From IMG/VR virus record IMGVR_UViG_3300028903_000001, positions 55,896 to 119,895 of that record: a stretch of DNA of 64,000 bases, one strand, 5' to 3'. The notes below the pieces were generated by a model that saw only the letters and a list, made by a program, of their open reading frames with translations, searched no databases and was not told the DNA's origin. Of this stretch, positions 3,207 to 55,908 are shown one piece after another; the first letter of the stretch is position 1; every line of letters starts with the position of its first letter. A program made the position numbers and the translations under genes. Source of the DNA: a virus (lineage: Duplodnaviria; Caudoviricetes).

Positions 3207-4705
3207 TCCTCTACCGTGCGCCTGCGGCTCTTGTTCCAGTCGAGAAGCGCCGCGATGCCGTATACCGCCACGCCTCCCATCGCGATGACCATCAGAGCGG
3301 TCAATGCAGACTCTGCGGTCTTAGCTAGCTTGCTAAACGGGCTCACCTCTTCCTTCTTGACATCGATCTCTGCCTTGTCTCTCGCCTGGCTACTGAGTTC
3401 GCTTTGAATCCTGAGCGCTTCCTTGGTAGCTTCTTCTCGACTCATGCCCCCAGCTACAAGCTTTTCGGTCTGCTCAGTGACAAAGTCCTGAGCCCTCCTC
3501 ATCGACGCCTTGTCGAGGTGCGCCTTCACGACGTCGCAAACCTCTTTGACCGATAGGTACTGAATGACGGAACCGATGATGACTGCGCCGACGACGAGCC
3601 CGACATATGCCGCACCCATCGTTCCTGGAGGCGTTATCGTGGTATCCTCGATGACGAATCGCTTCGTCGCTTCGTCAAAGCCTACCCTGGGCTCACCCGG
3701 CTTGCCTAGAATGAGAGAACTGGACTGATCGACGTCATAGGCCAGCCTGCGCTTGTCGGTCGCGCCGTCGTAGCCGTAGTTGATCATTTTGGGTATCCAC
3801 TTCTCCATATCACCGTAGTAGTCCTCGCTAGCCTGCGGCCAGGACTCGCTGATGATCGAATACCCCATCATCTCACAGGCCAGTTTGTACTGCCTGTGTT
3901 GGAACCTCACGTCGTAAAACGAGTCGGCGAGATCCGAGGTGATGCGTTTGACCTGTTCCCTCATATATTCGTAGAACGACTCTGTGATTCCGGTTAGACC
4001 CGGCTCGGCTTGTCCCGCTAGCATTCCTCCCGGCCTGCCAACTCCAACGAATCTGCCCGTGTTGTCACTAGATCCCAAGCCCGACGGGACCCTAGCGGCA
4101 TCGACGACACCGTTTTTATCCGCCAAGACCTTACCTCCGGGAACCGCGATGAAGGTCTCCCGCGTCGGCTTGGAAGCGGTGCCGAATGGATCGCTTGTCG
4201 AGGGATCGCACCTAACCCATACGCCCCGCTTCTCGTCTCTCACCGCCGCGAGAACATGCGTATGCTGGCGATGCGGCTCGTAGCTATGAGCGACGACGCA
4301 GCCTTCAATCCCCACGCTTTCAATCGCGGAAAGGAAGGCAACAACGAGACCGTCACAGTCTTCGCCCATGAACACGAGACCGTCGCAGCCCTCGAGCGTG
4401 CAAGCGGCGCTGGGGATGAATTCACCATCGATAGGGTCTTCGATGTAGGGACGCTCTTTTCGAAGACGTTCGAGGATAGCCTTTGCCTGAGCCATCTTGT
4501 CGGCCTGGAATCCACCCAGCCCGCCGCGAACAATGGTCTCCCTGGCCCAAGCCACGGTCTTTGGGTCCATGCGTCCCTTCTCGACGCGGTCCACGATTTC
4601 GGACAGGGAGACCCTGATCCCTTTTTCGCCCCTGGGGTGGGGGCGGCTCACGGTCTTGGGACCAGCGGTTCGGTTAGGTTGTTTTCGCGAGGGCTCGTTG
4701 CGCAT
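3203..4705 (-). CDS. Transglutaminase-like (Cys-His-Asp) protein with TM segments
   Basis: EDCDG...HTHVLAAV...WVRCDPS matches transglutaminase/papain-like triad spacing; two hydrophobic segments in the C-terminal half. Confidence 0.75.
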   Translation of the reverse strand: MRNEPSRKQPNRTAGPKTVSRPHPRGEKGIRVSLSEIVDRVEKGRMDPKTVAWARETIVRGGLGGFQADKMAQAKAILERLRKERPYIEDPIDGEFIPSAACTLEGCDGLVFMGEDCDGLVVAFLSAIESVGIEGCVVAHSYEPHRQHTHVLAAVRDEKRGVWVRCDPSTSDPFGTASKPTRETFIAVPGGKVLADKNGVVDAARVPSGLGSSDNTGRFVGVGRPGGMLAGQAEPGLTGITESFYEYMREQVKRITSDLADSFYDVRFQHRQYKLACEMMGYSIISESWPQASEDYYGDMEKWIPKMINYGYDGATDKRRLAYDVDQSSSLILGKPGEPRVGFDEATKRFVIEDTTITPPGTMGAAYVGLVVGAVIIGSVIQYLSVKEVCDVVKAHLDKASMRRAQDFVTEQTEKLVAGGMSREEATKEALRIQSELSSQARDKAEIDVKKEEVSPFSKLAKTAESALTALMVIAMGGVAVYGIAALLDWNKSRRRTVEE

Positions 4706-6908
4706 AGGCTATACCGTCCAGGAGGCTTTTCGATCCCCCCGACGATACGACGGGCTTTGCGCTAGGTCCATGTTGCGTAGGTACTTTTTTCTCCGTCCAC
4801 GCCGGTTTACTGGGAGGCGACGGGCTCGAGACCGTGACGGGAACAGGGGCTGGGGGAGACGTGGCGACGGTGACAGCGTTCCCGCTCTGGAGCGCATCGA
4901 CCGTGGACTGCGACGGCGCGAGCCGCCTCGAGAGCATGTCGATCTGTTGCGCCTGAAGCTGCTGGTTTTCCATGAGTTGCTGCTGCATCTGCTCAAACAT
5001 GCGATAGGTGTCCCGCATCTCTTCCTGTCTACGAGCATCTTTCACATGCTGCCTCAACTCACCAAGCGCCTTGATACCTGGCTCAATCCACGATTTGACA
5101 TTGTCGGCGTTGAGAGCCATCATGGTGAAGAAATCGACAGCTTTACCGTCCTTGTCGGTCACGTACCGAAACGGTCCCATCTCAAATACCTTGAGCGGAG
5201 AGCCGTCTTCCGCCTTGGTCTCGGACTGGACCAAAGCCTGTTGTGGCGGCGGTTGCTGCATCCACTGAGGCATTTGAGGCGGGGGCGGAACGGGTGGGGA
5301 TGATGGTGAGAGCTTTTCGAACATCTCTTTTAGCTCTGCCATCTGCTTCATCGTCTTTCGCATCTCGCTAAGCGAGTCCTTTGGCTCGGGCGGCGGCGGC
5401 TGCTGTTGTTGCTGTTGCGGCATCCCCATCTGAGCCCACTGCGCCATTTGCTGCTGCATCTGAATCTGCTGCTGCTGCGCCTCGGTGGCCTTCAGTCTCT
5501 CATCCACCAATCTGGCGATTTCCTCCATGCTCATCATTTGAGGCTGCTGCATAGGCTGTTGCTGCATCGCGGCTTGAGCCTTAGCCTCCTCGAGTTGCTG
5601 CTTCATGCTATGGAGCGACCCGTTGAGAGTTGACAGCATTTGCCAGACCTGGAACTGCTGCTGATACGAGGCTTGCGTACTTGCGCTTCTCATATCGTGG
5701 TTGTTCCGCTTCTGAAGCTTCTTGATCTGGCGGTTCAATCCCTTGATCGTCCCCTCTAGCTGAAGTATTCGATAGTCGGGTTGTGGCTGCTGCGGCTGGT
5801 ATGGGTTGTGACCCATTCTACTGGGAGGAGGCGGCGGAATATCCTCGATGAATTCCTCCTCTTCCTCCTCGTCATCGTCGTCATCGTCAACTTGATCCTG
5901 CGGAGGCGGCGGCGGCTGCATCCACGGCATTTGCTGCGGCCATCCCGGCATTTGTGGCTGTGGCTGTGGCCATTGCGGCTGCCCCCATTGCTGCTGTGGC
6001 TGCTGCGGAGGCGACTGTTGAAGCTGTGGTTGGGCCCAACCCTGCTGCTGCGGTGAAAGCCATTCCTGCGGTGGATGCTGCCTTTGCGGTTGCGGCTCGC
6101 CCCATTGCTGCTGCGGTTGCTGAACCTGCTGCGGAGGATCCTGCCATTGTTGGGCTCGAGGCTGCTGCTGCTGAGACCGAGACTGCTGCGGGTCCTGCCA
6201 CTGCTGCTGCGGTTGCTGAGCCTGCTGCGGATCGGAGGGCAGGGGAACACCTCTGGCTTGTGCCTCGATTGTTTTCCACTCGATCCTTCGCTTTGGGTTG
6301 TCACCCAGTTTGAGATAGCAAACCGCAGCAATGCTTCTGCCGGTAGAGTACATGATGATCTTGTACTTCTGCGGAGTGCCGTCCCATTGATTGTTGCAGA
6401 TATACTCACTGAGCTTACCCCAGTTTGGAACCTGATGAAGCGGTATCACTCCAACATGGTGGGCCACCGGCTGCTCAAGTGAGATCTCAACCTCGGACGA
6501 CGAGCCGAAAAGAGTCATGCACTTCTCGGAGCCATAGTTGTATTTGATGCCGTCTTGACCATGCCAGGGAACCCTGGCGTGATTCTTTCGCATCTCGATG
6601 ACGCGGTTAGCGGTCTGATTCTGAAGCCTGGCTTCGTCGTCGAGACCGTTTAGAAGCTCTTGTCGCTCCTCGTCCTCAGTCATCGGTCTATCACGCTGGA
6701 CGGGTGCGGATAGCTCCTGTCGCTGCGGCTCTTCGTCGTAGCTATCCAACTCCTCATCTTCATCTTCATCTTCATCCTCATCCTCGTTTTCCTCCACGAG
6801 GATTTCCTCTTCCCTCTTCTTTCTCGCCCTACCCGCTACGGCTGGCTTATTCCTCGGTCGTCCCCTTCGCTTCATACCCGCCAGTGATTGATTCTGCTTT
6901 CGAGCCAT
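4674..6908 (-). CDS. Large Gln/Pro/Met-rich low-complexity protein
   Basis: 744 aa with a basic N-terminus, acidic runs, PQQQW repeats and coiled-coil segments. Confidence 0.75.
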   Translation of the reverse strand: MARKQNQSLAGMKRRGRPRNKPAVAGRARKKREEEILVEENEDEDEDEDEDEELDSYDEEPQRQELSAPVQRDRPMTEDEERQELLNGLDDEARLQNQTANRVIEMRKNHARVPWHGQDGIKYNYGSEKCMTLFGSSSEVEISLEQPVAHHVGVIPLHQVPNWGKLSEYICNNQWDGTPQKYKIIMYSTGRSIAAVCYLKLGDNPKRRIEWKTIEAQARGVPLPSDPQQAQQPQQQWQDPQQSRSQQQQPRAQQWQDPPQQVQQPQQQWGEPQPQRQHPPQEWLSPQQQGWAQPQLQQSPPQQPQQQWGQPQWPQPQPQMPGWPQQMPWMQPPPPPQDQVDDDDDDEEEEEEFIEDIPPPPPSRMGHNPYQPQQPQPDYRILQLEGTIKGLNRQIKKLQKRNNHDMRSASTQASYQQQFQVWQMLSTLNGSLHSMKQQLEEAKAQAAMQQQPMQQPQMMSMEEIARLVDERLKATEAQQQQIQMQQQMAQWAQMGMPQQQQQQPPPPEPKDSLSEMRKTMKQMAELKEMFEKLSPSSPPVPPPPQMPQWMQQPPPQQALVQSETKAEDGSPLKVFEMGPFRYVTDKDGKAVDFFTMMALNADNVKSWIEPGIKALGELRQHVKDARRQEEMRDTYRMFEQMQQQLMENQQLQAQQIDMLSRRLAPSQSTVDALQSGNAVTVATSPPAPVPVTVSSPSPPSKPAWTEKKVPTQHGPSAKPVVSSGGSKSLLDGIAYAQRALAKTT

Positions 6909-8721: not shown

Positions 8722-10439
8722 ACACCTTCTCCTCCTCCATTCTTAACGAGTATGGGGTCGAGCCGACCGTTGCCGGGGCTCGGGCCTGGGCCAGGATCGG
8801 CTCAGCCGAGCGCAGGCCGATACGGTCTGCCGGGGCCTACGTCGGCGTTTGCCGAGCCATGTCCCCCAGCGCTCGCCACATCGATGGGCGACTCATAGCG
8901 GCGGGATTCGACCACGTCCCTCCCCTCGAATGGGTCAGGGGCGAGACCGGCATGCCGCCCCGCCGCCTCGAGGATTTTGTCAATTTCTGGGCCCGGACAC
9001 AGACCAGACCCGACACAGTGGGGTCCTCGTATAACGCCACACCCGAGGTGGCGTTTTCGTTGTGGCAGGGCAGGCACTGGACCTTCGCCTTGGCCGTGCC
9101 CTCTGAGCACTGGTCGAGAGCGCTGCGGCCCGACGGCTCGCTGCGACGGCGCTGGAGCCGAAACTGCGTAGAGATTGGCCGAGCGCTCAGGCGATGCTCA
9201 GCCTCGACGTCGACGTGCGGCTTGCCGATTTCGGCTCGAGCCGCTGCGGCACTGGGTCGGCTGTGTCCCGAGATGCAGCACGCCGCGCTCCAGGGCGTGG
9301 TGAACAGGGTTGAGGCTAGGGTCTCTGGTCAGCCCTGCTCGTCCGGCGGCACTGCCTGCGGCCCGCTGCCGCTGCGTGGGCGCTGGATGGGTATGCCCTG
9401 GGAGCCGATGTGTCGCAGCGATACGGGCCAATACCTCAGGCATGTCGGTGAGGAACGGTATGTCGTCTCGCACCCCTGCCTCGACTGGCCCGAGACGTGC
9501 CGGGGGACGGGCGCGGACCGTCTCGAGCCGGTTAGCGGTTTCTGCGGCAGAGTCGTCCGCATTCGCGATCTCGACTGGGCCGCAGCACAGCGAGTCCAGT
9601 CTATCGTCTCTCTCGGAGACAGAGCCAGGCTTCGCATGGTCTATGACCGCCCGAGGCGATTCGAGCGGCTCCTCGACAACCTGGCCCAGGATCGGAGCAA
9701 CAGGGTCGCGTTCCTGGCCCCCGCCTATCCCCGAGTGGATTACGACACGGCTCTGCACCTGTTTTTGGGCATGAGCCCGGTCGAGCTTAGCGGCTGCGTC
9801 CTATCGCGTCGCGAGGCCCATGAGTGGCTGCTCGACGGTGGCAGGGTCAGCCCGATCGCGTGGATCGTGCGAAACCTCCCCGACCTGCCCGCGATCCGTT
9901 CTGCGAATATCGCCAGGTGGCTCGTCGATCTGCATCGCAGAGGCGGCTGGGGCGGGCTCACTCGGACCCGCGTCACCTATGGCCCGGCAGAGGCTAGGCT
10001 CGAGTTTCGCATGATCGACCGGATCGACGAGATCCAGGACGTGGACCTCGTACGCGGAGTCTCTACCTCGGTCGACGATGCGTTTCGGCACGCCTCGGAG
10101 CGACTCGGTGCGGCGTGGCTCGAGACCGCTGCCGGGGACCATCGCGTGCTCGCGTACCCACCCGCACGCTGGAGGCTCTACCCCTGCATGCGTGCGCTGG
10201 TGACGCAAGCCATGCTGGCGAGGGAGGGGCAGGAAATGGGCCACTGCGTGGGTGGCTATAGCTACGCCGTCGAGCGGGGACAGAGCGTGATTCTGGCCCT
10301 CAACGTGGCGGGTCACCGCAGCACTGCCGAGGTGGCACCGGAGGGCAGGGTGATTCAGCACAGGGCCATGCACAACGGCGAGCCTCACACGCTGTGCCAG
10401 ACCGTGCTGAATCGATTCATCGAGAGGAGGATCGCATGA
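8718..10439 (+). CDS. PcfJ-like domain protein
   Basis: C-terminal LAREGQEMGHCVGGY...RSTAEV...QHRAMHN motif characteristic of PcfJ domains. Confidence 0.75.
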   Translation: MNTFSSSILNEYGVEPTVAGARAWARIGSAERRPIRSAGAYVGVCRAMSPSARHIDGRLIAAGFDHVPPLEWVRGETGMPPRRLEDFVNFWARTQTRPDTVGSSYNATPEVAFSLWQGRHWTFALAVPSEHWSRALRPDGSLRRRWSRNCVEIGRALRRCSASTSTCGLPISARAAAALGRLCPEMQHAALQGVVNRVEARVSGQPCSSGGTACGPLPLRGRWMGMPWEPMCRSDTGQYLRHVGEERYVVSHPCLDWPETCRGTGADRLEPVSGFCGRVVRIRDLDWAAAQRVQSIVSLGDRARLRMVYDRPRRFERLLDNLAQDRSNRVAFLAPAYPRVDYDTALHLFLGMSPVELSGCVLSRREAHEWLLDGGRVSPIAWIVRNLPDLPAIRSANIARWLVDLHRRGGWGGLTRTRVTYGPAEARLEFRMIDRIDEIQDVDLVRGVSTSVDDAFRHASERLGAAWLETAAGDHRVLAYPPARWRLYPCMRALVTQAMLAREGQEMGHCVGGYSYAVERGQSVILALNVAGHRSTAEVAPEGRVIQHRAMHNGEPHTLCQTVLNRFIERRIA

Positions 10440-19925: not shown

Positions 19926-19975
19926 CTCGTCCTCCTTGACCCCAGGGTCAAGTCGTGCATTTTGATCAAGTACAG

Positions 19976-20048
19976 CGTCCCCGGCAGGACTCGAACCTGC
20001 AAATTGCGGTTTAGGAAACCGCTGCTCTATCCATTGAGCTACGGAGAC
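19976..20048 (-). tRNA. tRNA-Arg(CCT)
   Basis: Reverse complement GTCTCCG-TAGCTCAATGGATAGAGC-A-GCGGT-TTCCTAA-ACCGC...GCAGG-TTCGAGT-CCTGC-CGGGGAC-G forms a full cloverleaf; no encoded CCA. Confidence 0.92.
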
Positions 20049-20767: not shown

Positions 20768-21079
20768 TCAAATCTCGCGATCCGGCTCGTCACTCTCCTC
20801 GACAGCCTTCTGTACACCATGTATCGCGTGGATGCTAAGGTCGATTGTGGCCTTTTTGTAGCCGATCCGCTGCATCTGGGCCCGAATCTCCTCTATCTGC
20901 GCTGGTCCCAGTCTATGCCAGGGGAAAGAGACGAGATCTTCCGGCGCGCGAAGCAGGCGCGTCACCCGCAGCAGCGCGCTGCGCATGCTCGCCGCTCCGT
21001 TGCGGCTCAGTTTCCCGAGGTAGATTTCGACCTGGGACCGCTGGAGAGGTGACTTGACTCTGCGTCGTTTATCGGACAC
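20768..21079 (-). CDS. Stand-alone tyrosine-recombinase core-binding (SAM-like) domain
   Basis: YLGKLS...MRSAL...FPWHRL...IRAQM...KATIDLSIHAIHGV resembles integrase N-terminal domains; no catalytic domain follows. Confidence 0.55.
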   Translation of the reverse strand: MSDKRRRVKSPLQRSQVEIYLGKLSRNGAASMRSALLRVTRLLRAPEDLVSFPWHRLGPAQIEEIRAQMQRIGYKKATIDLSIHAIHGVQKAVEESDEPDREI

Positions 21080-21129
21080 AATAACGTCTCCTAGCTATCT
21101 GTCCGATAAGGGAGCATTATCGGACACAA
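21069..21129. promoter_or_regulatory. lox-like recombination/operator site
   Basis: TGTCCGATAA (21100-21109), 7-bp GGGAGCA, TTATCGGACA (21117-21126), plus a third arm TTATCGGACACAA at 21069-21081. Confidence 0.7.
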
Positions 21130-21148
21130 CCTCGTTTTGGAGTCTAGT

Positions 21149-22117
21149 ATGTCTAACACCTACATCGTAAAGCCTGACTCGAGCGCCGCGCTCGCGACCG
21201 ACCTCGAGGATCTTGCGGACCAGGCCAAGGACTTCATCAAAGCTTCGAAGTCGAAAGCGACGCGCACAGCTTACAGGTCGGACTTCGATGCCTTCACCTC
21301 GTGGTGCCGGGAACACGTTCTGGTGTCGATCCCGGCGAGACCCGAGACAGTGGCGATGTACGCCGCACACATGGCCCGCGAGGGGCTCGGCGTGTCGAGT
21401 GTCCAGCGAGCCATGGCGGCGATATCGCAGGCGCACAGAATGGCCGGAATCGAGTCGCCAACCCAGGCATCCGTGGTGAGGGAAACCGTCCGTGGCATCC
21501 GGCGCAGCCTCGGCGTGAAGCCGAACAAGAAGGCCCCCGTCACGATCGACGAGCTTCGAAAGATGGTCGCGACTCGCCCACAGACCCTGCTCGGCCTGCG
21601 AGACCGCGCGCTGCTTCTGCTCGGCTTCAGCGGCGCGTTTCGCCGCTCCGAGCTTGCCGCGCTCGACCATGCCGACCTGGATTTTGTCGCCGAGGGCGTC
21701 GTCGTCACGGTGCGTCGCAGCAAAACCGATCAGGAAGGCGAGGGGCTCGAGAAGGCGATTCCCTACGCCATGGACCAGACCATGTGCCCGGTCCTTACGC
21801 TTCAGTCCTGGCTCGACGCGGCTGGAACGAGTGATGGTCCCGTGTTTCCGAGCATCGATCGCGGCGACAACCTGTCTGGACGCATGAGCGACAGGGCCGT
21901 GGCAAGGACCGTGCAGAGAGCCGCGAGGCGCGTCGGTCTGGACCCGTCCAGATTCGCGGGGCACAGCCTCCGAGCCGGGTTTGCCACATCGGCCATTCTC
22001 GCCGGGAAATCGGAGGCAGATACGATGCGGCAGACCGGGCATAGGAGTATTGCCGTTTTCAGGGGTTATGTTCGAGTCGCTAATCTGTGGAAGAGTAATG
22101 CGTCTAAACTGCTTTGA
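21149..22117 (+). CDS. Tyrosine recombinase (Cre/Xer-like)
   Basis: FRRSEL (R), RSKTDQ (K), GHSLRAG (HxxR), TGHRS (H) and RGYVR (Y) are all intact. Confidence 0.95.
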   Translation: MSNTYIVKPDSSAALATDLEDLADQAKDFIKASKSKATRTAYRSDFDAFTSWCREHVLVSIPARPETVAMYAAHMAREGLGVSSVQRAMAAISQAHRMAGIESPTQASVVRETVRGIRRSLGVKPNKKAPVTIDELRKMVATRPQTLLGLRDRALLLLGFSGAFRRSELAALDHADLDFVAEGVVVTVRRSKTDQEGEGLEKAIPYAMDQTMCPVLTLQSWLDAAGTSDGPVFPSIDRGDNLSGRMSDRAVARTVQRAARRVGLDPSRFAGHSLRAGFATSAILAGKSEADTMRQTGHRSIAVFRGYVRVANLWKSNASKLL

Positions 22118-22162
22118 TGGGGCGCAGCTACCATACCACTGCCGCCGCCTGGGGGCTGGCCG

Positions 22163-23094
22163 GTCTCGACAAGCAAGATGTCGAGCTACTACTGCCACAC
22201 GGGATCCGTGTTTCCTAGTTGATCTGTCACTCATGGGTCTCGACAAGCAAGATGTCGAGCTACTACCGCTACACTCGTCAAGCAGTTGGGACCTTGAGTT
22301 GGAGTGGGAGTCTCGACAAGCAAGATGTCGAGCTACTACTGCTACACGCCAGATAGGCCTCAGCGCGATCGTCAAGACCAAGGTCTCGACAAACAAGATG
22401 TCGAGCTACTACCGCTACCGCTGATGCAGACAAGCGTTTGACTGCGGCAAAGGAGTCTCGACAAGCAAGATGTCGAGCTACTACCGCTACCGGCTCGTCG
22501 CTCCCAGGGCGCGGCGCAACCAGGCTTGACAGGTCACGGCTCGACCCTGGTCTCGACAAGCAAGATGTCGAGCTACTACCGCTACCGCGCCTCGGTGAGG
22601 TATTTGCGGGAGACGACGCCGGGTCTCGACAAGCAAGATGTCGAGCTACTACCGCTACGATGACGATGGGGCGCGTCGCCATCCGAGATTGCCGCATGTC
22701 TCGACAAGCAAGATGTCGAGCTACTACCGCTACTTAGAGACGTCTTCGCCTCGGGCGACCCGGAGAACGTCTCGACAAGCAAGATGTCGAGCTACTACCG
22801 CTACGACCGGGTTCGAATTTCGCATCGAGGGCACCTCTCTTGTCTCGACAAGCAAGATGTCGAGCTACTACCGCTACAGGACAAAAAGGGGCAACCGAAG
22901 CCGGCACACCCGCCGTCTCGACAAGCAAGATGTCGAGCTACTACCGCTACGTCGGGCAGGACGATCAAGATCCCATCGACGCGATTGTCTCGACAAGCAA
23001 GATGTCGAGCTACTACCGCTACCATCCCGCTACCCACCTGGAAGGCGCTCGGCGAAATGTCTCGACAAGCAAGATGTCGAGCTACTACCGCTAC
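22163..23094 (-). CRISPR. CRISPR array 1: 13 repeats, 12 spacers
   Basis: 36-bp repeat (+ strand GTCTCGACAAGCAAGATGTCGAGCTACTACCGCTAC) with unique 35-39 bp spacers and one of 59 bp. Variant repeats cluster at the low-coordinate (trailer) end. Confidence 0.97.
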
Positions 23095-23273
23095 GAGTCT
23101 GGCAGGACGCTCGCAATTTCGACGGGTTACAGCACGACTTGCGAGCGGTCCTCCAAGCCTACTGTCTCGGATCAATTTTCAACGACCAGGATCGGCGTAG
23201 TGCCGCAGATTCTACCTCATCTCTGAGGCTTTCGAGCGGTCCCAGCGGTTTCGGGACCACCCAGGCGCTCGCG
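23095..23273 (-). promoter_or_regulatory. CRISPR leader, copy 1
   Basis: 179 bp, 4 mismatches to 24527-24705; abuts the first repeat. Confidence 0.85.
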
Positions 23274-23843
23274 AAGCTTCTCGTTCTCCTTTTCCAAACT
23301 CCTGACCCTTGCCTTCAGTGTCTTGTTCTCAGCCCTAAGCTCCCTATTCTCCCTGGACAGTTTATCGAACAGGTTCTCCTTCTGGGGCTTGACCCTAACC
23401 TCGGGGACGTAGTGCTTTCGGACTATCGACGCTGCGCTCCACGAACTCGGCTCTTTACCATTCCTGACTCGAAACTCAATGAGTTCTGCCATGGCAGATC
23501 TTGTTGCCAGACCGTGTACGGATCTTGACGGAGCATCGGGAGGAATGATGAGCAACTTCTCTGCCGCAGGGATACCTATCTTACGAATGTTGTCAATGCC
23601 GCCACACAACTCGACACAAAGTTTGAATCTCGCAAACCTTGTTGGCTGGGCAAGGTCACTCACATGGAGCACCTCCACAAATGTGGCCCACCCATACCTA
23701 CCACCTACACCACTCTTCCATGCCGATTCGTTCTTTTCGAACCTGACGAGACCAGCCATGAAGTCAACCCCGGCCTCGGAGTATGCGGTCCTTAGCGCCT
23801 CGCACTCCTTTACGAGCGCATCAAATCTCTTCTTGGTCGCCAT
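23217..23843 (-). CDS. Unknown 208-aa protein between the two arrays, with C-terminal coiled coil
   Basis: GAGGTG RBS and ATG; heptad LSRENRELRAENKTLKARVRSLEKENEKL; the last codons run into leader copy 1. Confidence 0.75.
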   Translation of the reverse strand: MATKKRFDALVKECEALRTAYSEAGVDFMAGLVRFEKNESAWKSGVGGRYGWATFVEVLHVSDLAQPTRFARFKLCVELCGGIDNIRKIGIPAAEKLLIIPPDAPSRSVHGLATRSAMAELIEFRVRNGKEPSSWSAASIVRKHYVPEVRVKPQKENLFDKLSRENRELRAENKTLKARVRSLEKENEKLRERLGGPETAGTARKPQR

Positions 23844-23876
23844 GTCTCACCTCACTGTTATCTATCGACTACCTAG

Positions 23877-24526
23877 TGTCGAGCTACTACCGCTACAAAG
23901 TCGAATTGCGCGGAGATATCGTCCGTCGCGTGTCTCGACAAGCAAGATGTCGAGCTACTACCGCTACATCTCGCGTCATCGGCTTGCTGGCTCGGCAGTT
24001 CCACGCGGTGCTCCGTCTCGACAAGCAAGATGTCGAGCTACTACCGCTACGGTCTCCATATAGACCGGCACGAAATACGAATCGATGTCTCGACAAGCAA
24101 GATGTCGAGCTACTACCGCTACCGAATTCGGTCGATATCGGTGCGATTCTTGGCTGGCGTCTCGACAAGCAAGATGTCGAGCTACTACCGCTACCCCCAA
24201 GCTCACACCTGTTGCACAGACCGTGATGTTCGTCTCGACAAGCAAGATGTCGAGCTACTACCGCTACCTGGCGTCTCGACAAGCAAGATGTCGAGCTACT
24301 ACCGCTACAATGGGACAGACGAGGGCGGCAGGACGATGCAGCGGTCTCGACAAGCAAGATGTCGAGCTACTACCGCTACGATCGGATCGCGGAGGCCCGC
24401 GTCGCTGAGTGGTTGGCCGTCTCGACAAGCAAGATGTCGAGCTACTACCGCTACTGCGCTGGCCCGTGCCGTTGCGCAGTTTGACGCGCTGTCTCGACAA
24501 GCAAGATGTCGAGCTACTACCGCTAC
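23877..24526 (-). CRISPR. CRISPR array 2: 9 full repeats plus a degenerate terminal repeat, 9 spacers
   Basis: Same repeat at 23932, 24015, 24087, 24159, 24232, 24273, 24344, 24419 and 24491; half repeat at 23877-23896. Spacers are 35-39 bp plus one of 47 bp and one of 5 bp. Confidence 0.97.
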
Positions 24527-24705
24527 GGGTCTGGCAGGACGCTCGCAATTTCGACGGGTTACAGCACGACTTGCGAGCGGTCCTCCAAGCCCACTGTCTC
24601 GGATCAATTTTCAACGACCAGGATCGGCGTAGTGCCGCAGATTCGACCTCATCTCTGAGGCTTTCGAGCGGTCCCAGCGGTTTCGGAACCACCCAGGCGC
24701 TCGCG
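24527..24705 (-). promoter_or_regulatory. CRISPR leader, copy 2
   Basis: Lies between the cas12-like stop and array 2; duplicate of 23095-23273. Confidence 0.85.
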
Positions 24706-24706
24706 T

Positions 24707-26674
24707 TTACTCAGCCGCGACGGCGAGCATCTTCTCCTGTCTCCTGATGATTTCCAACACTTCGTTTTGCTTCCCGTCATCGTTGAGCATGTTCAACAAT
24801 CTAACGTGGAATGTATCACGAGTCAGTCCGCAATGCGAGCAGGAAAACATATGCGCCTTCACATCTTTATTTCCCTTCTCGAGTCTGCCGCACCTGGGGC
24901 ATCTCACTGAGCTATTCTCGACACTGACCTTCTCATAGAACACTCCCCTACCTCTGGCGGCATTCTTGATGCATTCGCGAAAGATGCCTGGGGCCACGAT
25001 CTGGAGATTGGACCTCGACTTTTGTCTCTGCCTCTTACCAATCTCGCCCTCGCTCTTCTCTTCCTCTTTCTCCTTCTCCACTATCTGCTTGAAGTTGGTG
25101 CCGTCCACAAGTATTCGGGAGTACGTCCTCGCCAATCTGGCCGCGACGTTTCGATACGCATTGTTTCTTCTGCGTTTCGCCGTTTCATGCATACCCCCCT
25201 CAAAACGGTACAGATGCAGGTTCTGCTTCCTCCATGCCATCATTCTCTCGTAAATCTCTGCGTCACCCTCGAATCGATTCTTCTCCCACGTCGTGACTAG
25301 ATTGGCAAGCCGCCTTGGAGCCCTCCACTTTTGCATGCGAGCTATCGCCTGCTTTGATGTCGGTGTTCCATCGACACTCTTATCCTCCTCGTCATCGATG
25401 TCTCTTGCCGTAGCATTTCGCATCCACGCTGGCAGCTTATCGATCATGCTGAGCCAAGAGACTAGCTCCTTCATCGCCTTGTTGAAGTTGTCGTCCCTGG
25501 TGCGTGAGATCTCTTCCTTCCTTCTGAAGCTGGCGAAGATTCCGCTCCTGCCGCCGTCGCTCTCCACGTTGTATGGGCTCTGCACGCATCCCTTCCCACA
25601 CTCGATCTTTTCAACGATCTTGTCTCGAGACAGATCAAACACTCCGGTCTCCCCGTCCTCCGAGAGCCAATGCGCGACCCTGATCTTGTTGCCTTCCACT
25701 GCCCGCCATCCCAGCACTACGGCAACCGTGCCCCCTGCGGGCAGTGGCGGCTTCTCCGATTGCTTGTCAAGCTCTACCGTGATCTCACAGGACCAGCGCA
25801 GGTCTGGACCCCGCCTTCGCCTGGTAACGGTTACCCAGGTGATTCTCGAATTCGGTGGCAGCGGCCTATGAAGTATCATCGGCCACTTGGCTACGATGTA
25901 TTCGCTCTTTCCCCTGGCGGTCCCGGCGACTGCCATGGTCAGAGTAGTCCTTGCCGCACGCCTCCTGTCGCACCGTCTTTCCGAGGTGAGCGCAACCGTG
26001 TCAACCGGATCGATGATAGCTCTATGGTCGTTGCTAAAAATGTCAAGAGGGATTTTGCCCTTGCCGCCCTGTATCTGCACCGACAAAGACCCCTCACCTT
26101 TCCACCGTTTGAATTCAGGGTTGTTGTCCTCCCTCCCTTCGTACATGGGGACCTTGGAACTCTCAAAGAATGCCTTGTCCACAAGTAACTTCGTGCCCCA
26201 GAAAGCCGGGGAGTCGTGACTGGCCTGTCTCCTCATCCTCGCCGCGATACCGTTGTTCGGTGTCTTGTCCGAAAAAGCTTCGGCTCTTGTCTTTTTCTTG
26301 CCAGTGCTTTCCTTGCCATTGATCTCGAGCATGCGGGCCTTTAGCGCTGGCGTGGCCCTCAACTCCTTGATCCTAGCAATGAGTTTGGCGATCTTTTCAT
26401 CAATCGCCTCAACCTTTTCCGCGAACTCTTTGCTGGACCTGTCCTTGTCCGACTTGCCCTTGTAGAGCTTAGCCTTTTCCACGCCCAGGTCTTTGATTTG
26501 ACCCAATAGCTCTCGGATGCCGTACTCGTCTTCCGCTGCCCGCTTCAGATCCCTGACCTTGCACTCCACGCTCACTAGCTCATTTCTGTACCTATGCGCG
26601 TGCCACAACTGCTCTTCCACCACATCCGCGTTAAAAACCGGAGGCAAGAGCCCATATTTCATCACCAATGGCAT
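24707..26674 (-). CDS. Type V CRISPR effector, Cas12m (V-U1)-like, predicted nuclease-dead (~655 aa)
   Basis: N-terminal KYGLLPP...EQLWHAHRYRNELV, LHRPLP, RuvC-I VAVVLGWR, RuvC-II ILVDGTN, CPRC/CSHC Zn finger, RuvC-III RDTF; directly upstream of leader and array. Confidence 0.85.
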   Translation of the reverse strand: MPLVMKYGLLPPVFNADVVEEQLWHAHRYRNELVSVECKVRDLKRAAEDEYGIRELLGQIKDLGVEKAKLYKGKSDKDRSSKEFAEKVEAIDEKIAKLIARIKELRATPALKARMLEINGKESTGKKKTRAEAFSDKTPNNGIAARMRRQASHDSPAFWGTKLLVDKAFFESSKVPMYEGREDNNPEFKRWKGEGSLSVQIQGGKGKIPLDIFSNDHRAIIDPVDTVALTSERRCDRRRAARTTLTMAVAGTARGKSEYIVAKWPMILHRPLPPNSRITWVTVTRRRRGPDLRWSCEITVELDKQSEKPPLPAGGTVAVVLGWRAVEGNKIRVAHWLSEDGETGVFDLSRDKIVEKIECGKGCVQSPYNVESDGGRSGIFASFRRKEEISRTRDDNFNKAMKELVSWLSMIDKLPAWMRNATARDIDDEEDKSVDGTPTSKQAIARMQKWRAPRRLANLVTTWEKNRFEGDAEIYERMMAWRKQNLHLYRFEGGMHETAKRRRNNAYRNVAARLARTYSRILVDGTNFKQIVEKEKEEEKSEGEIGKRQRQKSRSNLQIVAPGIFRECIKNAARGRGVFYEKVSVENSSVRCPRCGRLEKGNKDVKAHMFSCSHCGLTRDTFHVRLLNMLNDDGKQNEVLEIIRRQEKMLAVAAE

Positions 26675-26701
26675 CGTGTTCCCCTTTCTTCTCTGCGTCA
26701 T

Positions 26702-27055
26702 CTACTGTCGAGCTACTACTGCTACCTCGAACAACTCTCCGACCGTCACTCCGGTCGTATAGCTCTCATACCTCTCACCAACCTCTGTGAGACTAGCAAG
26801 TCTGATTCCTTTTGGCCACTCAATTGTTTCGAGCCGAAACGATTTCTCTACCCTCGCCCACTTGTACAGCGAGCCGTCGGGCCAGCTATACTGATGCCTG
26901 TACTCGATACCGTTTTGCTCCAGAGTGGACTCGACGAGACGCTCGGCTAGTGACAAAACGAAGTCAGCCCTCGCCTCTCTGCCCATTTCTTCGCGCCCAG
27001 CTATGTTGAACAGGCCACTGTAGCTAAAGCTCATCGAGTAGTATCTGTAACTCAT
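26702..27055 (-). CDS. Hypothetical protein whose last codons (VAVVARQ) are encoded by the half repeat
   Basis: ATGA overlap with the exonuclease stop; 117 aa. Confidence 0.55.
   Translation of the reverse strand: MSYRYYSMSFSYSGLFNIAGREEMGREARADFVLSLAERLVESTLEQNGIEYRHQYSWPDGSLYKWARVEKSFRLETIEWPKGIRLASLTEVGERYESYTTGVTVGELFEVAVVARQ
26706..26725 (-). repeat. Orphan half CRISPR repeat upstream of the effector gene
   Basis: TGTCGAGCTACTACTGCTAC, identical to the corresponding part of the repeat variant at 22310. Confidence 0.8.
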
Positions 27056-27745: not shown

Positions 27746-29470
27746 TCACTTTTCGCTACCAGACGTTGCCAATGCAACGCCCAGTGCCGATGCATCCAAC
27801 AGGTTTCCCCGAAGGATGGGTTGATCTCCCAAAGCTCGCAGGAATATCCCGCGAGCGCCGTTGTAATCTCGATCCATTGACACGCCGGTCGATGCCGATC
27901 GGACAGTCTTTGCGCCACCAAGCTTGGCGTTGATCTCGCCGGTCCACGACACGGTCTTGCTCGTCCAAGCCTCGTTCTGGTCGAGCACGAGCTTGCCGTA
28001 CTCGAACGCCTTGTGCTTCAGGAAAGTCTTGAACCGATAGTGCGAGAACGTCAGCATGGATCGCACCGACTTCGCGCGAAGCCTGCGCGCCCCGCGCCGA
28101 ACCATCTCCGAGGTCTCGAACGTCGGCAGCACGATCACGTCGAAGCTCTTGACCAGAAACGCTGCCACCTTGTGGTGCAGATCGTCTACAAGGTTTCGAA
28201 TCCTGACCTGCATGCTCACGATAGCACGCCGAAGATTTCGCTTCCGAAGACGATGCGTCTCCAACCTGCGCCTCGAAATGAGGTCATCCATGTGCGAGCA
28301 CAACCGCTGAATCTTCCCGAAGTCGCCAGCACCAAGCTTGCCGCAACTGGACTCCGTGTAGAACGTTTGGAAGGATCGTATCCCTGGATCGAGAGCAACG
28401 ACGCGCCCTTGGTTTTCGGCTACGCACCGCTTTTGCTGCACGGGAACGATCAGAAACCACCGCCCTCTTTCGCAGACTAGCCTAAGATCGCAATGTTCCT
28501 TTGGTACCTCCTCGACCATTCGAAGCGCCCCTCGGGATAGAGTCGGGTAGACCCCACCGTTTCGAAGTGCGCTTTTGGGGATGTAGCAGGACTGCACCGG
28601 GTTCTTTCTCGACCTGAACCCGACGTCCTGAAAGCCTCCCCCCTCCTTGAATCTGCGCTTTGCCGCCGACACGGCTTTACAGGCATCGCGCACCGCCACT
28701 GACCTGATCTGGTAGGGCGTCTCCTCGGACCAAGCAGGGAGACCTCGCAGCAGCCCCGTCTTGATCGACTTCCAGTTCGCCTTCGTCCCCGGGGTCTTCA
28801 GAAAGCTCACGGCAGCGTTGAAGGCGACGCGCGCAGTCCCAAACCACTGTCTGAAGATGCTCTCCTGCTGCCTAGTGGGGTAGAGTCGGATCTTCTTTGA
28901 TTTGAGAAGCGTATCGTCGCAGCCCGTGCATTCGGCAAGAGAAGACGTGAATGATGGCGAGAAGATCGTCGGATAGCTCTCGCTCGGGGCTGTGTTCAAC
29001 TCGATCGAGAACCAAGAGTTCGCCACCGTTTTGCTCGAGCATGTGGGCGATGAGTTCGACACCAAAGCGGGCAAGGCGGTCCTTGTGGGCAACCACAACC
29101 GTGAGCTTTGCTCCTCATGCCAATCGGTCCAGTAGGGAGAGCAGTCCTTTACGCTTGAAGTTGAGACCACTTCCGATGTCCTTGACGATTTCGGCATCAG
29201 GGAAGCGCTGTCGCATGTAGACAACCTGTCTTGCGAGGTCGTCCTTTTGCTTCGGGGAGGAGACCCTGAAGTAGCAGATGGTGGCGGGGGGCAAGGCGTC
29301 TTTGACGAAGGACTCGACATCGAAGAGCCGCTGACCCGCAGGGTTTCTAACGTGTTTGATGAGTCCAGCATCAGCGTATTTCCGCACCGTATTGGGGGCA
29401 CATGCCGAGCGACTGGCATGCCATCCGTAGAGGGACGAGCTTTATGTCGTATGGTAGAGGACGGTGGCAT
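27746..29470 (-). CDS. tnpB: IS607 TnpB RNA-guided nuclease (true start uncertain)
   Basis: KIRLYPT HTH, ALDPG (D), PTFET (E), DRDYNGARGI (D); Zn-finger cysteines absent. Confidence 0.9.
   Translation of the reverse strand: MPPSSTIRHKARPSTDGMPVARHVPPIRCGNTLMLDSSNTLETLRVSGSSMSSPSSKTPCPPPPSATSGSPPRSKRTTSQDRLSTCDSASLMPKSSRTSEVVSTSSVKDCSPYWTDWHEEQSSRLWLPTRTALPALVSNSSPTCSSKTVANSWFSIELNTAPSESYPTIFSPSFTSSLAECTGCDDTLLKSKKIRLYPTRQQESIFRQWFGTARVAFNAAVSFLKTPGTKANWKSIKTGLLRGLPAWSEETPYQIRSVAVRDACKAVSAAKRRFKEGGGFQDVGFRSRKNPVQSCYIPKSALRNGGVYPTLSRGALRMVEEVPKEHCDLRLVCERGRWFLIVPVQQKRCVAENQGRVVALDPGIRSFQTFYTESSCGKLGAGDFGKIQRLCSHMDDLISRRRLETHRLRKRNLRRAIVSMQVRIRNLVDDLHHKVAAFLVKSFDVIVLPTFETSEMVRRGARRLRAKSVRSMLTFSHYRFKTFLKHKAFEYGKLVLDQNEAWTSKTVSWTGEINAKLGGAKTVRSASTGVSMDRDYNGARGIFLRALGDQPILRGNLLDASALGVALATSGSEK
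28872..29445 (-). pseudogene. tnpA: IS607 TnpA serine recombinase with an in-frame TGA
   Basis: PNTVRKYAD HTH, YFRVSS...DIGSGLNFKRKG, TGA at 29115-29117, then the same frame continues GAKLTVVVAHKDRLARFG. Confidence 0.85.
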
Positions 29471-55562: not shown

Positions 55563-55908
55563 TTAGTCCCCCTTTCGGTTTCTACTTCTCCTAGGCATGT
55601 CCACGACGTTAGTCACCGGCTCGTTTCGTTTCTCCGATAGAGCCTGCACCATAGTCTCCGCTCTCTCGAGGAGCTTGGCCAAGTATTCGGCTACCTTTCT
55701 CTGCTCGAGCCGGTTTCCCCTCGGCCTCGTCACCGTGACGAAGGGGATAAACTTCTCCACATTCTCGTAGCGGTTGAACTTCCGGCTACCAACGCTGATG
55801 CTAAACACGTCCCCCTTTCTCGCGACTTGCACGCAGATGTCTCGCATCGACTCTTCCGCATCCTTGTCTCGGATAACAGCGACAAGCTCCCATTGTTGCT
55901 GGACTTGA

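Follow-up and report, generated by a model that had tools for sequence, protein, structure and literature searches.

In this study, we describe a locus within 64,000 nucleotides of viral DNA (the window, meaning the whole stretch that was analyzed; positions 55,896 to 119,895 of IMG/VR record IMGVR_UViG_3300028903_000001), and we consider it likely that this locus is a phage-borne type V-M CRISPR-Cas12m interference cassette. The cassette has no adaptation genes and would be an exchangeable module of a 120-kb tailed phage of activated sludge. Its targets are probably competing elements, it appears to possess a dedicated accessory gene, and the recombinase gene that adjoins it would be unrelated to its function. 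The IMG/VR record comprises 119,895 bp with direct terminal repeats and a CheckV completeness of 100%, which bears out the viral origin assigned in a preliminary description of the same DNA; the window is the second half of this record. Near-identical DNA was also found in activated-sludge metagenomes from two studies. No RNA run containing the locus was listed, which says nothing for or against its expression. Neither cas1 nor cas2 was detected in the window or elsewhere in the 119,895-bp genome, so that the absence of these genes, which had been noted before for the window, holds for the entire phage.

The effector gene, cas12m, was found at 24707-26701 on the minus strand. Its longest open reading frame (ORF) encodes 664 residues, and the likely start is the ATG at 26674 (655 residues), which is conserved, agrees with the start of the database protein P0006 (655 residues) and is backed by the alignment with a sister phage (L002). 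Family membership was directly evident from phmmer searches of the PDB, which revealed full-length similarity to a Cas12m structure (23vw, E 1.7e-37) and to GoCas12m (8pm4, E 4.2e-29, residues 26-632), as well as to MmCas12m2 (8hhl, E 3e-17, residues 26-630). The zinc ribbon was matched by Pfam Cas12f1-like_TNB (E 1e-7), and its cysteines C601, C604, C621 and C624 were invariant in an alignment of 20 homologues. Additionally, the WED pair H278/R279 (269/270 in the 655-residue numbering) was invariant in all 20 aligned homologues; this pair is the counterpart of H269/R270 of MmCas12m2, which touch the CRISPR RNA (crRNA) scaffold (PMC10442227). A search of IMG/VR that started from the effector alone found no relatives.

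The loss of catalytic residues was also observed directly. Motif alignments placed V329, D533 and F631 at the three positions of the RuvC triad, so that two of the three acidic residues were lost, and the close subclade relatives contained V or S at the first of these positions, D at the second and S, A, P or F at the third. The triads published for Cas12m clades are HEK/HQK, HDD, DED/NED, DND and NDD. V-D-F is absent among them, and since V-D-x lies outside the published triads, it points to an additional and fuller loss of the RuvC active site. Cas12m proteins with DED, HDD or NDD triads, in every case tested, bind DNA without cutting it and process their own pre-crRNA independently of RuvC (PMC11013384, PMC10442227), and the DNA that tested members bind consists of targets flanked by a protospacer-adjacent motif (PAM). 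Judging from its sequence, the effector of the window is expected to bind only, with no cleavage. The nuclease-dead, Cas12m-like effector proposed in the preliminary description was upheld by both the PDB matches and the V-D-F triad.

Read along the minus strand, the locus consists of a half-repeat, cas12m, a leader, array 2, an ORF of 208 residues (the accessory gene, 23217-23843, minus strand), a copy of the leader and array 1; this order, together with the twin arrays and the duplicated leader, had been given correctly before, and every element was found in its place. The repeat is a 36-nt unit (GTAGCGGTAGTAGCTCGACATCTTGCTTGTCGAGAC on the minus strand) that folds with a 7-bp 3' hairpin, and the 22 repeats across both arrays were perfectly or nearly perfectly conserved. 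Array 1 (22163-23094, minus strand) contains 13 repeats, 12 spacers and a possible terminal spacer. Its low-coordinate (trailer) end has three to four degenerate repeats, which fits transcription of the minus strand from the leader. Array 2 (23877-24526, minus strand) contains nine full 36-nt repeats (24526-23932) and a terminal 20-nt 5' half-repeat (23896-23877), with eight normal spacers and one 5-nt pseudo-spacer. Irregularities in the arrays were located at 24232-24308, 23968-24014 and 22491-22549, namely two repeats 5 nt apart and over-long spacers of 47 and 59 nt. Frames running over the arrays, among them an ORF of 433 residues (21095-22396, minus strand) and one of 296 residues (22638-23528, plus strand), were rejected as artefacts of the repeats. 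An antisense repeat, as in the anti-repeat of a trans-activating CRISPR RNA, was not found in the 119.9-kb genome, whole or as either half, at up to 2-6 mismatches.

The leader of array 2 (24527-24706, minus strand; 179 nt) and the leader of array 1 (23095-23273, minus strand) both contain the motif GGACCGCTCGCAAG 54 nt upstream of the first repeat. The two leaders are part of a duplication of 216 nt (23058-23273 versus 24490-24705) with 98% identity, which begins 2 nt past the cas12m stop and takes in the final 57 nt of the 208-residue ORF, where the leader of array 1 overlaps the gene. This placement suggests that array 2 was made when the 3' end of the accessory gene and the leader were duplicated and placed directly behind cas12m. 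A solitary 20-nt 5' half-repeat (GTAGCAGTAGTAGCTCGACA; 26706-26725, minus strand) is located 32 nt upstream of the cas12m ATG, within the 3' end of a 117-residue ORF (26702-27055), and bears a G6A variant, as in the trailer-end repeats of array 1. At this exact spot, L002 holds unrelated sequence between conserved flanks, and we therefore regard the half-repeat as a local recombination scar or an insertion. The two 5' half-repeats (26706-26725 and 23877-23896) sit 32-33 nt before the start codons of cas12m and the accessory gene, respectively, which hints that array ends and gene starts once recombined with each other.

Across V-M loci that diverge strongly from one another, the leader motif was better conserved than the repeats. 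In the form CCGCTCGCAA, it was present 53-55 nt before the first repeat in both leaders of the window (starts at 23148 and 24580, minus strand) and in L002, L012, L015, L029 and L009, and it was found with one or two mismatches at the same distance in four loci without the accessory gene (L024, L036, L039 and L065). A role as a private operator of the accessory gene was rejected because the motif also stands at -54 in such accessory-less loci, and we therefore regard it as a general leader element of this array family, for which a function as promoter element, integration signal or protein-binding site is conceivable. A second copy of the motif encodes the conserved C-terminal GTARK peptide of the accessory protein. 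A sigma-70 scan of the leaders revealed no promoter-like site. The leader of array 1 showed a predicted hairpin (RNA fold -39.4 kcal/mol, z -2.56), and single-sequence folds placed the motif within a hairpin of 10-17 bp in four loci. RNAalifold found no consensus structure among seven leaders, and for this reason we do not claim these hairpins as a conserved feature.

According to the interpretation that we favor, both arrays would be transcribed on the minus strand from the duplicated leaders, and Cas12m would recognize the 3' hairpins of the repeats and mature the crRNAs itself. The Cas12m-crRNA complex would then bind PAM-flanked matching DNA without cutting it, and this binding would block the transcription or replication of the target, most likely a competing phage or plasmid in the same host. 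The accessory protein would either regulate the locus or cooperate with Cas12m at its targets. A virus-borne weapon acting by such CRISPR interference had been one of the two options of the preliminary description; it is the best-supported function, by homology to characterized Cas12m proteins, but no target was found in the collections searched.

The boundaries of the cassette were directly visible in a comparison of the window with the sister phage L002, a 69-kb contig (also present as L014, L021 and L058) with the same gene order. L002 and L021 (JBAZMT010000008.1) are filed as a scaffold of a 'Parcubacteria group bacterium' metagenome-assembled genome (MAG); the gene content of L002 and its synteny with a complete phage suggest that it is a mis-binned phage. 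The DNA of the flanks was 84-90% identical between the two phages, the identity fell to ~66% from approximately nt 245 of cas12m to the array end, and it was back at 90.5% precisely where the 3' end of the recombinase gene is reached, with the high-identity block resuming at 22110. At the protein level, the identities were 95.7% for the recombinase, 90% for a 103-residue ORF divergent from it and 90% for the 117-residue ORF upstream of cas12m. Cas12m and the accessory protein, whose genes are also adjacent in L002, were 56% and 55.5% identical, respectively. The repeats differed, and the spacer sets of the two phages were entirely different. As the drop in identity was confined to the cassette, we conclude that the CRISPR cassette is an exchanged module in a conserved backbone and that the recombinase belongs to this backbone. 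We regard a V-M cassette that is exchangeable between closely related phages as direct evidence of its use in mobile-element conflicts.

The conservation of the accessory gene beside cas12m was likewise observed directly. A six-member profile searched against 1.84 billion representative proteins revealed a family of 414 clusters, of which 117 had E <= 1e-10, and nearly all of those listed were 150-270 residues long. The genomic context was readable for eight members (the window, L002, L012, L015, L016, L029, L009 and P0185; a further member, L017, lies on a contig of 881 bp and was left out as too short). In all eight, cas12m was located beside the accessory gene, directly upstream of it in seven, and two of the cas12m genes were frameshifted. 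Except for the pair formed by the window and L002, the backgrounds were unrelated. In L012, the effector and the accessory protein were 39% and 37% identical to those of the window, the stop and start codons overlapped, eight repeats were present and the neighborhood was wholly different. The corresponding identities were 39% and 42% in L015, 35% and 36% in L016, and 27% and 22% in L009, in which the accessory gene follows the arrays and its product matched a profile built without L009 at E 1e-29. L029 contains a member of the family (E 3e-20) that is followed by 13 repeats; its cas12m (4050-5982) is split into two frames and represents either a frameshifted pseudogene or an assembly error. 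P0185 is a 508-residue call in which a C-terminal fragment of Cas12m is fused to the accessory protein through a frameshift.

Across these paired loci, the accessory protein and the effector diverged in step. The effectors with an accessory gene grouped into one clade (SH-aLRT 100) in a quick maximum-likelihood tree, together with P0008-P0012, whose context was unread, and L009 and P0013 formed a second group without a settled placement in the tree; a single origin of the accessory-bearing Cas12m proteins would be compatible with this tree. The triads in the accessory-bearing set were V-D-x, H-D-D (L016 and L029) and D-E-D (L009), indicating that the accessory gene is not tied to one triad. 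A coupling between the dead Cas12 and the 208-residue protein, which had been raised before as an option, is strongly supported at the genomic level by the adjacency in all readable contexts and the matched divergence.

The 208-residue protein was predicted to be helical in its N-terminal domain (residues 1-147) and to have a coiled coil or leucine zipper towards its C-terminus (residues 158-193). No family in Pfam, NCBIfam or PHROGs could be assigned to it except for C-terminal coiled-coil matches, and a comparison of the N-domain sequence with these databases and the PDB gave coiled-coil matches only. The AlphaFold model (pLDDT 78) was all-helical, with residues 1-147 packed into a compact domain and residues 158-193 forming a single long helix. 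In VIA, the N-domain matched the ParB DNA-binding domain (6s6h, Z 7.3), Spo0J (1vz0, Z 6.8, with a root mean square deviation of 4.0 over 108 residues) and KorB (1r71, Z 4.9), and a further match was Noc (6y93, TM 0.62 by target). Foldseek revealed nothing at E <= 0.001 for the model, and an ESM Atlas feature search and a BFVD search gave weak pointers to the phage family DUF3102. Since these scores fall within the range of unrelated helical proteins, we treat the likeness to ParB and DUF3102 as a lead and not as a finding. Leucine-zipper profiles matched the C-terminal helix in many members of the family, which suggests that the accessory protein forms a dimer. A complex prediction for Cas12m and the accessory protein gave a score of 0.23 against a mark of 0.32, which is no verdict and is evidence for neither side.

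The accessory gene appears to be dedicated to this Cas12m lineage and, as judged from the model, probably encodes a dimeric DNA-binding protein with a helix-turn-helix (HTH)-like domain and a leucine zipper. Regarding its role, our best inference, which we offer tentatively, is that the protein regulates the locus as a dimer that binds DNA. A role as a co-repressor that acts with Cas12m at the targets comes second to this and is rather unlikely. We assign a similarly low probability to the accessory protein being a new Cas12m component, namely a dimeric ParB/KorB-like binder that would be loaded at targets by Cas12m-crRNA and would achieve robust silencing by bridging or spreading, thereby offsetting the lost RuvC pocket for the non-target strand. 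If true, such loading would define a two-component V-M subtype.

The adjoining recombinase gene (21137-22117, plus strand) encodes a Cre-like tyrosine recombinase (Phage_integrase E 3.7e-17; SAM-like N-domain E 7.7e-5). Its best solved relatives were P1 Cre structures (E 2e-14, residues 50-314), and all of the catalytic residues are present (R169, K196, H276, R279, H302 and Y311). The gene is convergent with array 1, and 45 nt separate the array end from its stop at 22117; the short gap and the intact catalytic center therefore agree with what had been described. A site at 21069-21126, which lies intergenically between the 103-residue ORF and the recombinase, contains three exact copies of TTATCGGACA. 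Two of these copies form a perfect 10-bp inverted repeat around a 7-bp spacer (TGTCCGATAA-7 nt-TTATCGGACA, 21100-21126), so an inverted repeat does lie beside the recombinase gene, as previously noted, and the third copy is at 21069-21078. No other exact copy of TTATCGGACA was found in the window, and the three-copy site was identical in L002. We consider it a candidate recombination site or operator, the latter because it overlaps a divergent promoter region. The 103-residue ORF (20768-21079, minus strand) had been described as a divergent gene with a core-binding domain; the ORF exists, but the domain was not confirmed, and no family match was obtained.

The position of the recombinase brings up the idea of RNA-guided recombination, in which the dead Cas12m would steer the Cre-like enzyme, with or without the 208-residue protein, to spacer-matched DNA, as Cas12k does with a Tn7-like transposase. 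This idea draws on the 45-bp distance, on the same arrangement of recombinase and array in L002, and on L010, a plasmid-like contig with ParA/ParB, in which an integrase-like pseudogene fragment (9354-9899, minus strand; 25% identical to the window recombinase, E 3e-7) follows the gene of a distant Cas12m at ~0.5 kb on its downstream side. However, the recombinase retains backbone identity in L002, whereas the cassette beside it is a swapped block, and no tyrosine recombinase was found in the readable flanks of five loci with effector and accessory genes (L012, L015, L016, L029 and L009) or in ~14 further metagenomic Cas12m-array loci, apart from copies of the sister phage. In addition, the 10-bp recombinase site has no exact copy near the arrays, and the enzyme is the only tyrosine recombinase (Phage_integrase) in a 120-kb phage with terminal repeats, which needs one for its own life cycle. 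The coupling of a dead Cas12 to a tyrosine recombinase, which the preliminary description had put forward as its second option, naming effectors without a nearby recombinase as evidence that would speak against it, is therefore very improbable. On sequence grounds, the recombinase appears to be the phage's own circularization, resolution or integration enzyme, unrelated to CRISPR function.

Gene control in place of attack, with spacers aimed at host or own-phage promoters during infection or lysogeny in the manner of TldR, is a less far-fetched explanation that we nevertheless hold to be improbable. DNA binding without cleavage by Cas12m suits regulation, as do the missing adaptation genes and the presence of a dedicated DNA-binding-like accessory protein, and a precedent for RNA-guided repressors in prophages is provided by TldR proteins, which are reportedly prophage-encoded, nuclease-dead repressors derived from TnpB. 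In contrast, no spacer matched the phage's own genome, and 21 diverse spacers in a set wholly unlike that of the sister phage point to turnover under conflict and not to fixed regulatory guides. Moreover, plasmid V-M systems are read as a means of inter-element competition in PMC11656645. Mere hitch-hiking of the 208-residue protein is more doubtful still. In that case, an unremarkable DNA-binding or regulatory protein of the phage would lie next to cas12m without any functional tie, perhaps through an insertion hotspot, as might be supposed from its scarcity among related Cas12m loci and from its nearest weak look-alikes (ParB-like proteins and DUF3102, a family of phages and plasmids). Hitch-hiking sits poorly with a gene that lies directly downstream of cas12m in five unrelated backgrounds, often with overlapping stop and start codons, and that is placed between the effector and the leader (after the arrays in L009). 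The distant members of the family (E 3e-20 and 6e-10) also adjoin cas12m, the divergence of the accessory protein follows that of the effector, and the 3' end of the gene contains a second copy of the conserved leader motif.

Several points weigh against the interference cassette that we favor. The 21 spacers are unique, with none common to both arrays; a comparison of the whole arrays with 50,697 phage records (INPHARED) revealed no protospacer, two leader-proximal spacers had no exact 28-mer match in IMG/VR, and one of these two had no 26-mer match in JGI metagenomes; the loci retrieved from relatives gave no match either. The presence of the spacers in a genome without cas1/cas2 is a further difficulty. 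The HDD triad of Cas12m2 helps to hold the non-target strand via a Mg ion, which is impossible with V-D-F, and the biochemical tests in the literature cover no triad of the V-D-F type. The proposed DNA-binding fold of the accessory protein is based on middling matches (Z 7.3, 6.8 and 4.9). Finally, most related Cas12m loci are without the accessory gene, including the MsCas12m plasmid locus, phage Rctr197k, a Gemmatimonadales MAG contig and most metagenomic matches, and the basic function of Cas12m therefore does not depend on it. A metagenomic V-M locus with the same repeat family (L037, 1749-5950) was found to contain, in place of the accessory gene, a Cas4/Cas1-like ORF of 553 residues and a Cas2-like ORF of 96 residues between cas12m and the array, and loci of this kind could supply spacers in trans.

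The genes neighboring the locus were phage-like and encode a DnaB helicase, further helicases, exonucleases, a DUF5131 protein and tail-fibre-like repeat proteins. At a distance of 1 kb upstream of cas12m, an IS607-like element (27746-29470, minus strand) is inserted, which consists of a resolvase-like ORF of ~90 residues and a 474-residue TnpB containing HTH_OrfB_IS605 and TNB domains. The element has no counterpart in L002, which indicates a recent insertion, and as a result of its position the phage has two TnpB-derived genes close to each other. A tRNA-Arg(CCT) gene was found at 19975-20048 on the minus strand, ~0.7 kb from the recombinase module.

Compact and programmable, Cas12m is under development as a DNA binder for use in base and epigenome editing and in genetic circuits, and it has so far been treated as a single-protein system. 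An entire lineage of Cas12m is marked by the accessory family described here, which comprises 414 clusters and has no Pfam domain. If the accessory protein improves or regulates silencing, both the biology of type V-M and the engineering of Cas12m tools would change. The comparative data also remove the tempting idea of RNA-guided Cre-like recombination.

We compared the locus with known systems and found the closest likeness in type V-M, whose characterized members (MmCas12m2, GoCas12m, MsCas12m and PmCas12m) are RNA-guided DNA binders that silence transcription. The shared features are full-length effector homology (E 1.7e-37 to 3e-17), a size of ~600-660 residues, the TNB zinc ribbon and the WED His-Arg pair, together with 36-nt repeats that have a 3' hairpin before the spacer, no anti-repeat, no adaptation genes and carriage on mobile elements. 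The locus of the window differs in its V-D-F triad, in its duplicated leader and array, and in its ~200-residue accessory protein encoded between the effector and the leader, which the characterized MsCas12m locus does not have. It is also located on a complete, virulent-looking or phage-plasmid-like 120-kb phage and not on a plasmid; subtype V-M is enriched on plasmids and occurs in some prophages, as stated in PMC11656645. MvCas12m of myxophage MV-1 (bioRxiv 10.64898/2026.09.14.751636, September 2026) was reported as the first phage-encoded Cas12m. Similar to the window, MV-1 carries a V-M effector with an adjacent array, has no cas1/cas2/cas4 and yielded no spacer targets. In contrast, no accessory gene and no twin arrays are described for it, and the triad assigned to it is an intact D-E-D, whereas the aligned RuvC-I and RuvC-III positions of the window subclade are non-acidic. 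MvCas12m (610 residues, eight spacers) resembles L012 in size and spacer number, which is a likeness only. A GenBank phage, 'Virus Rctr197k' (L030; KX853510.1, 110803-114219), contains an unannotated homologue of Cas12m under the label 'similar to transposase'; an annotated CRISPR region comes directly after it. As evident from MV-1 and Rctr197k, a phage-borne Cas12m is not new in itself.

The overall arrangement also resembles that of the Cas12k/Tn7-like CRISPR-associated transposons of type V-K, in which a nuclease-dead type V effector is present on a mobile element beside a recombination enzyme. However, the effector and transposase genes co-occur in all members of type V-K, whereas the recombinase here lies outside the cassette and is missing from the other loci; Tn7-like genes, which are present in type V-K, were absent. 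The recombinase module is similar to P1 Cre/loxP in that the enzymes are relatives (E 2e-14), all six catalytic residues are present, inverted arms are located beside the gene and the enzyme is the lone recombinase of a large phage with terminal repeats. It differs in that the arms are 10 bp instead of 13 bp, the spacer is 7 bp instead of 8 bp, and a third copy of the arm is present 21 nt away. The likeness of the accessory protein to the HTH domains of ParB, Spo0J, Noc and KorB and to DUF3102 is structural, as suggested by superposition of the modeled N-domain, with no match at the sequence level. Compared with ParB, it is without the N-terminal CTPase domain and has a leucine zipper where ParB has its dimerization domain. 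We found no description of the accessory protein in the Cas12m papers examined; one review legend names a 'tr. regulator' among type IV/V-M plasmid genes (PMC11656645), and an earlier notice is therefore possible. Relative to these known systems, we regard the locus as new in its accessory gene, which is conserved, in its V-D-x triad and in the duplication of its leader and array.

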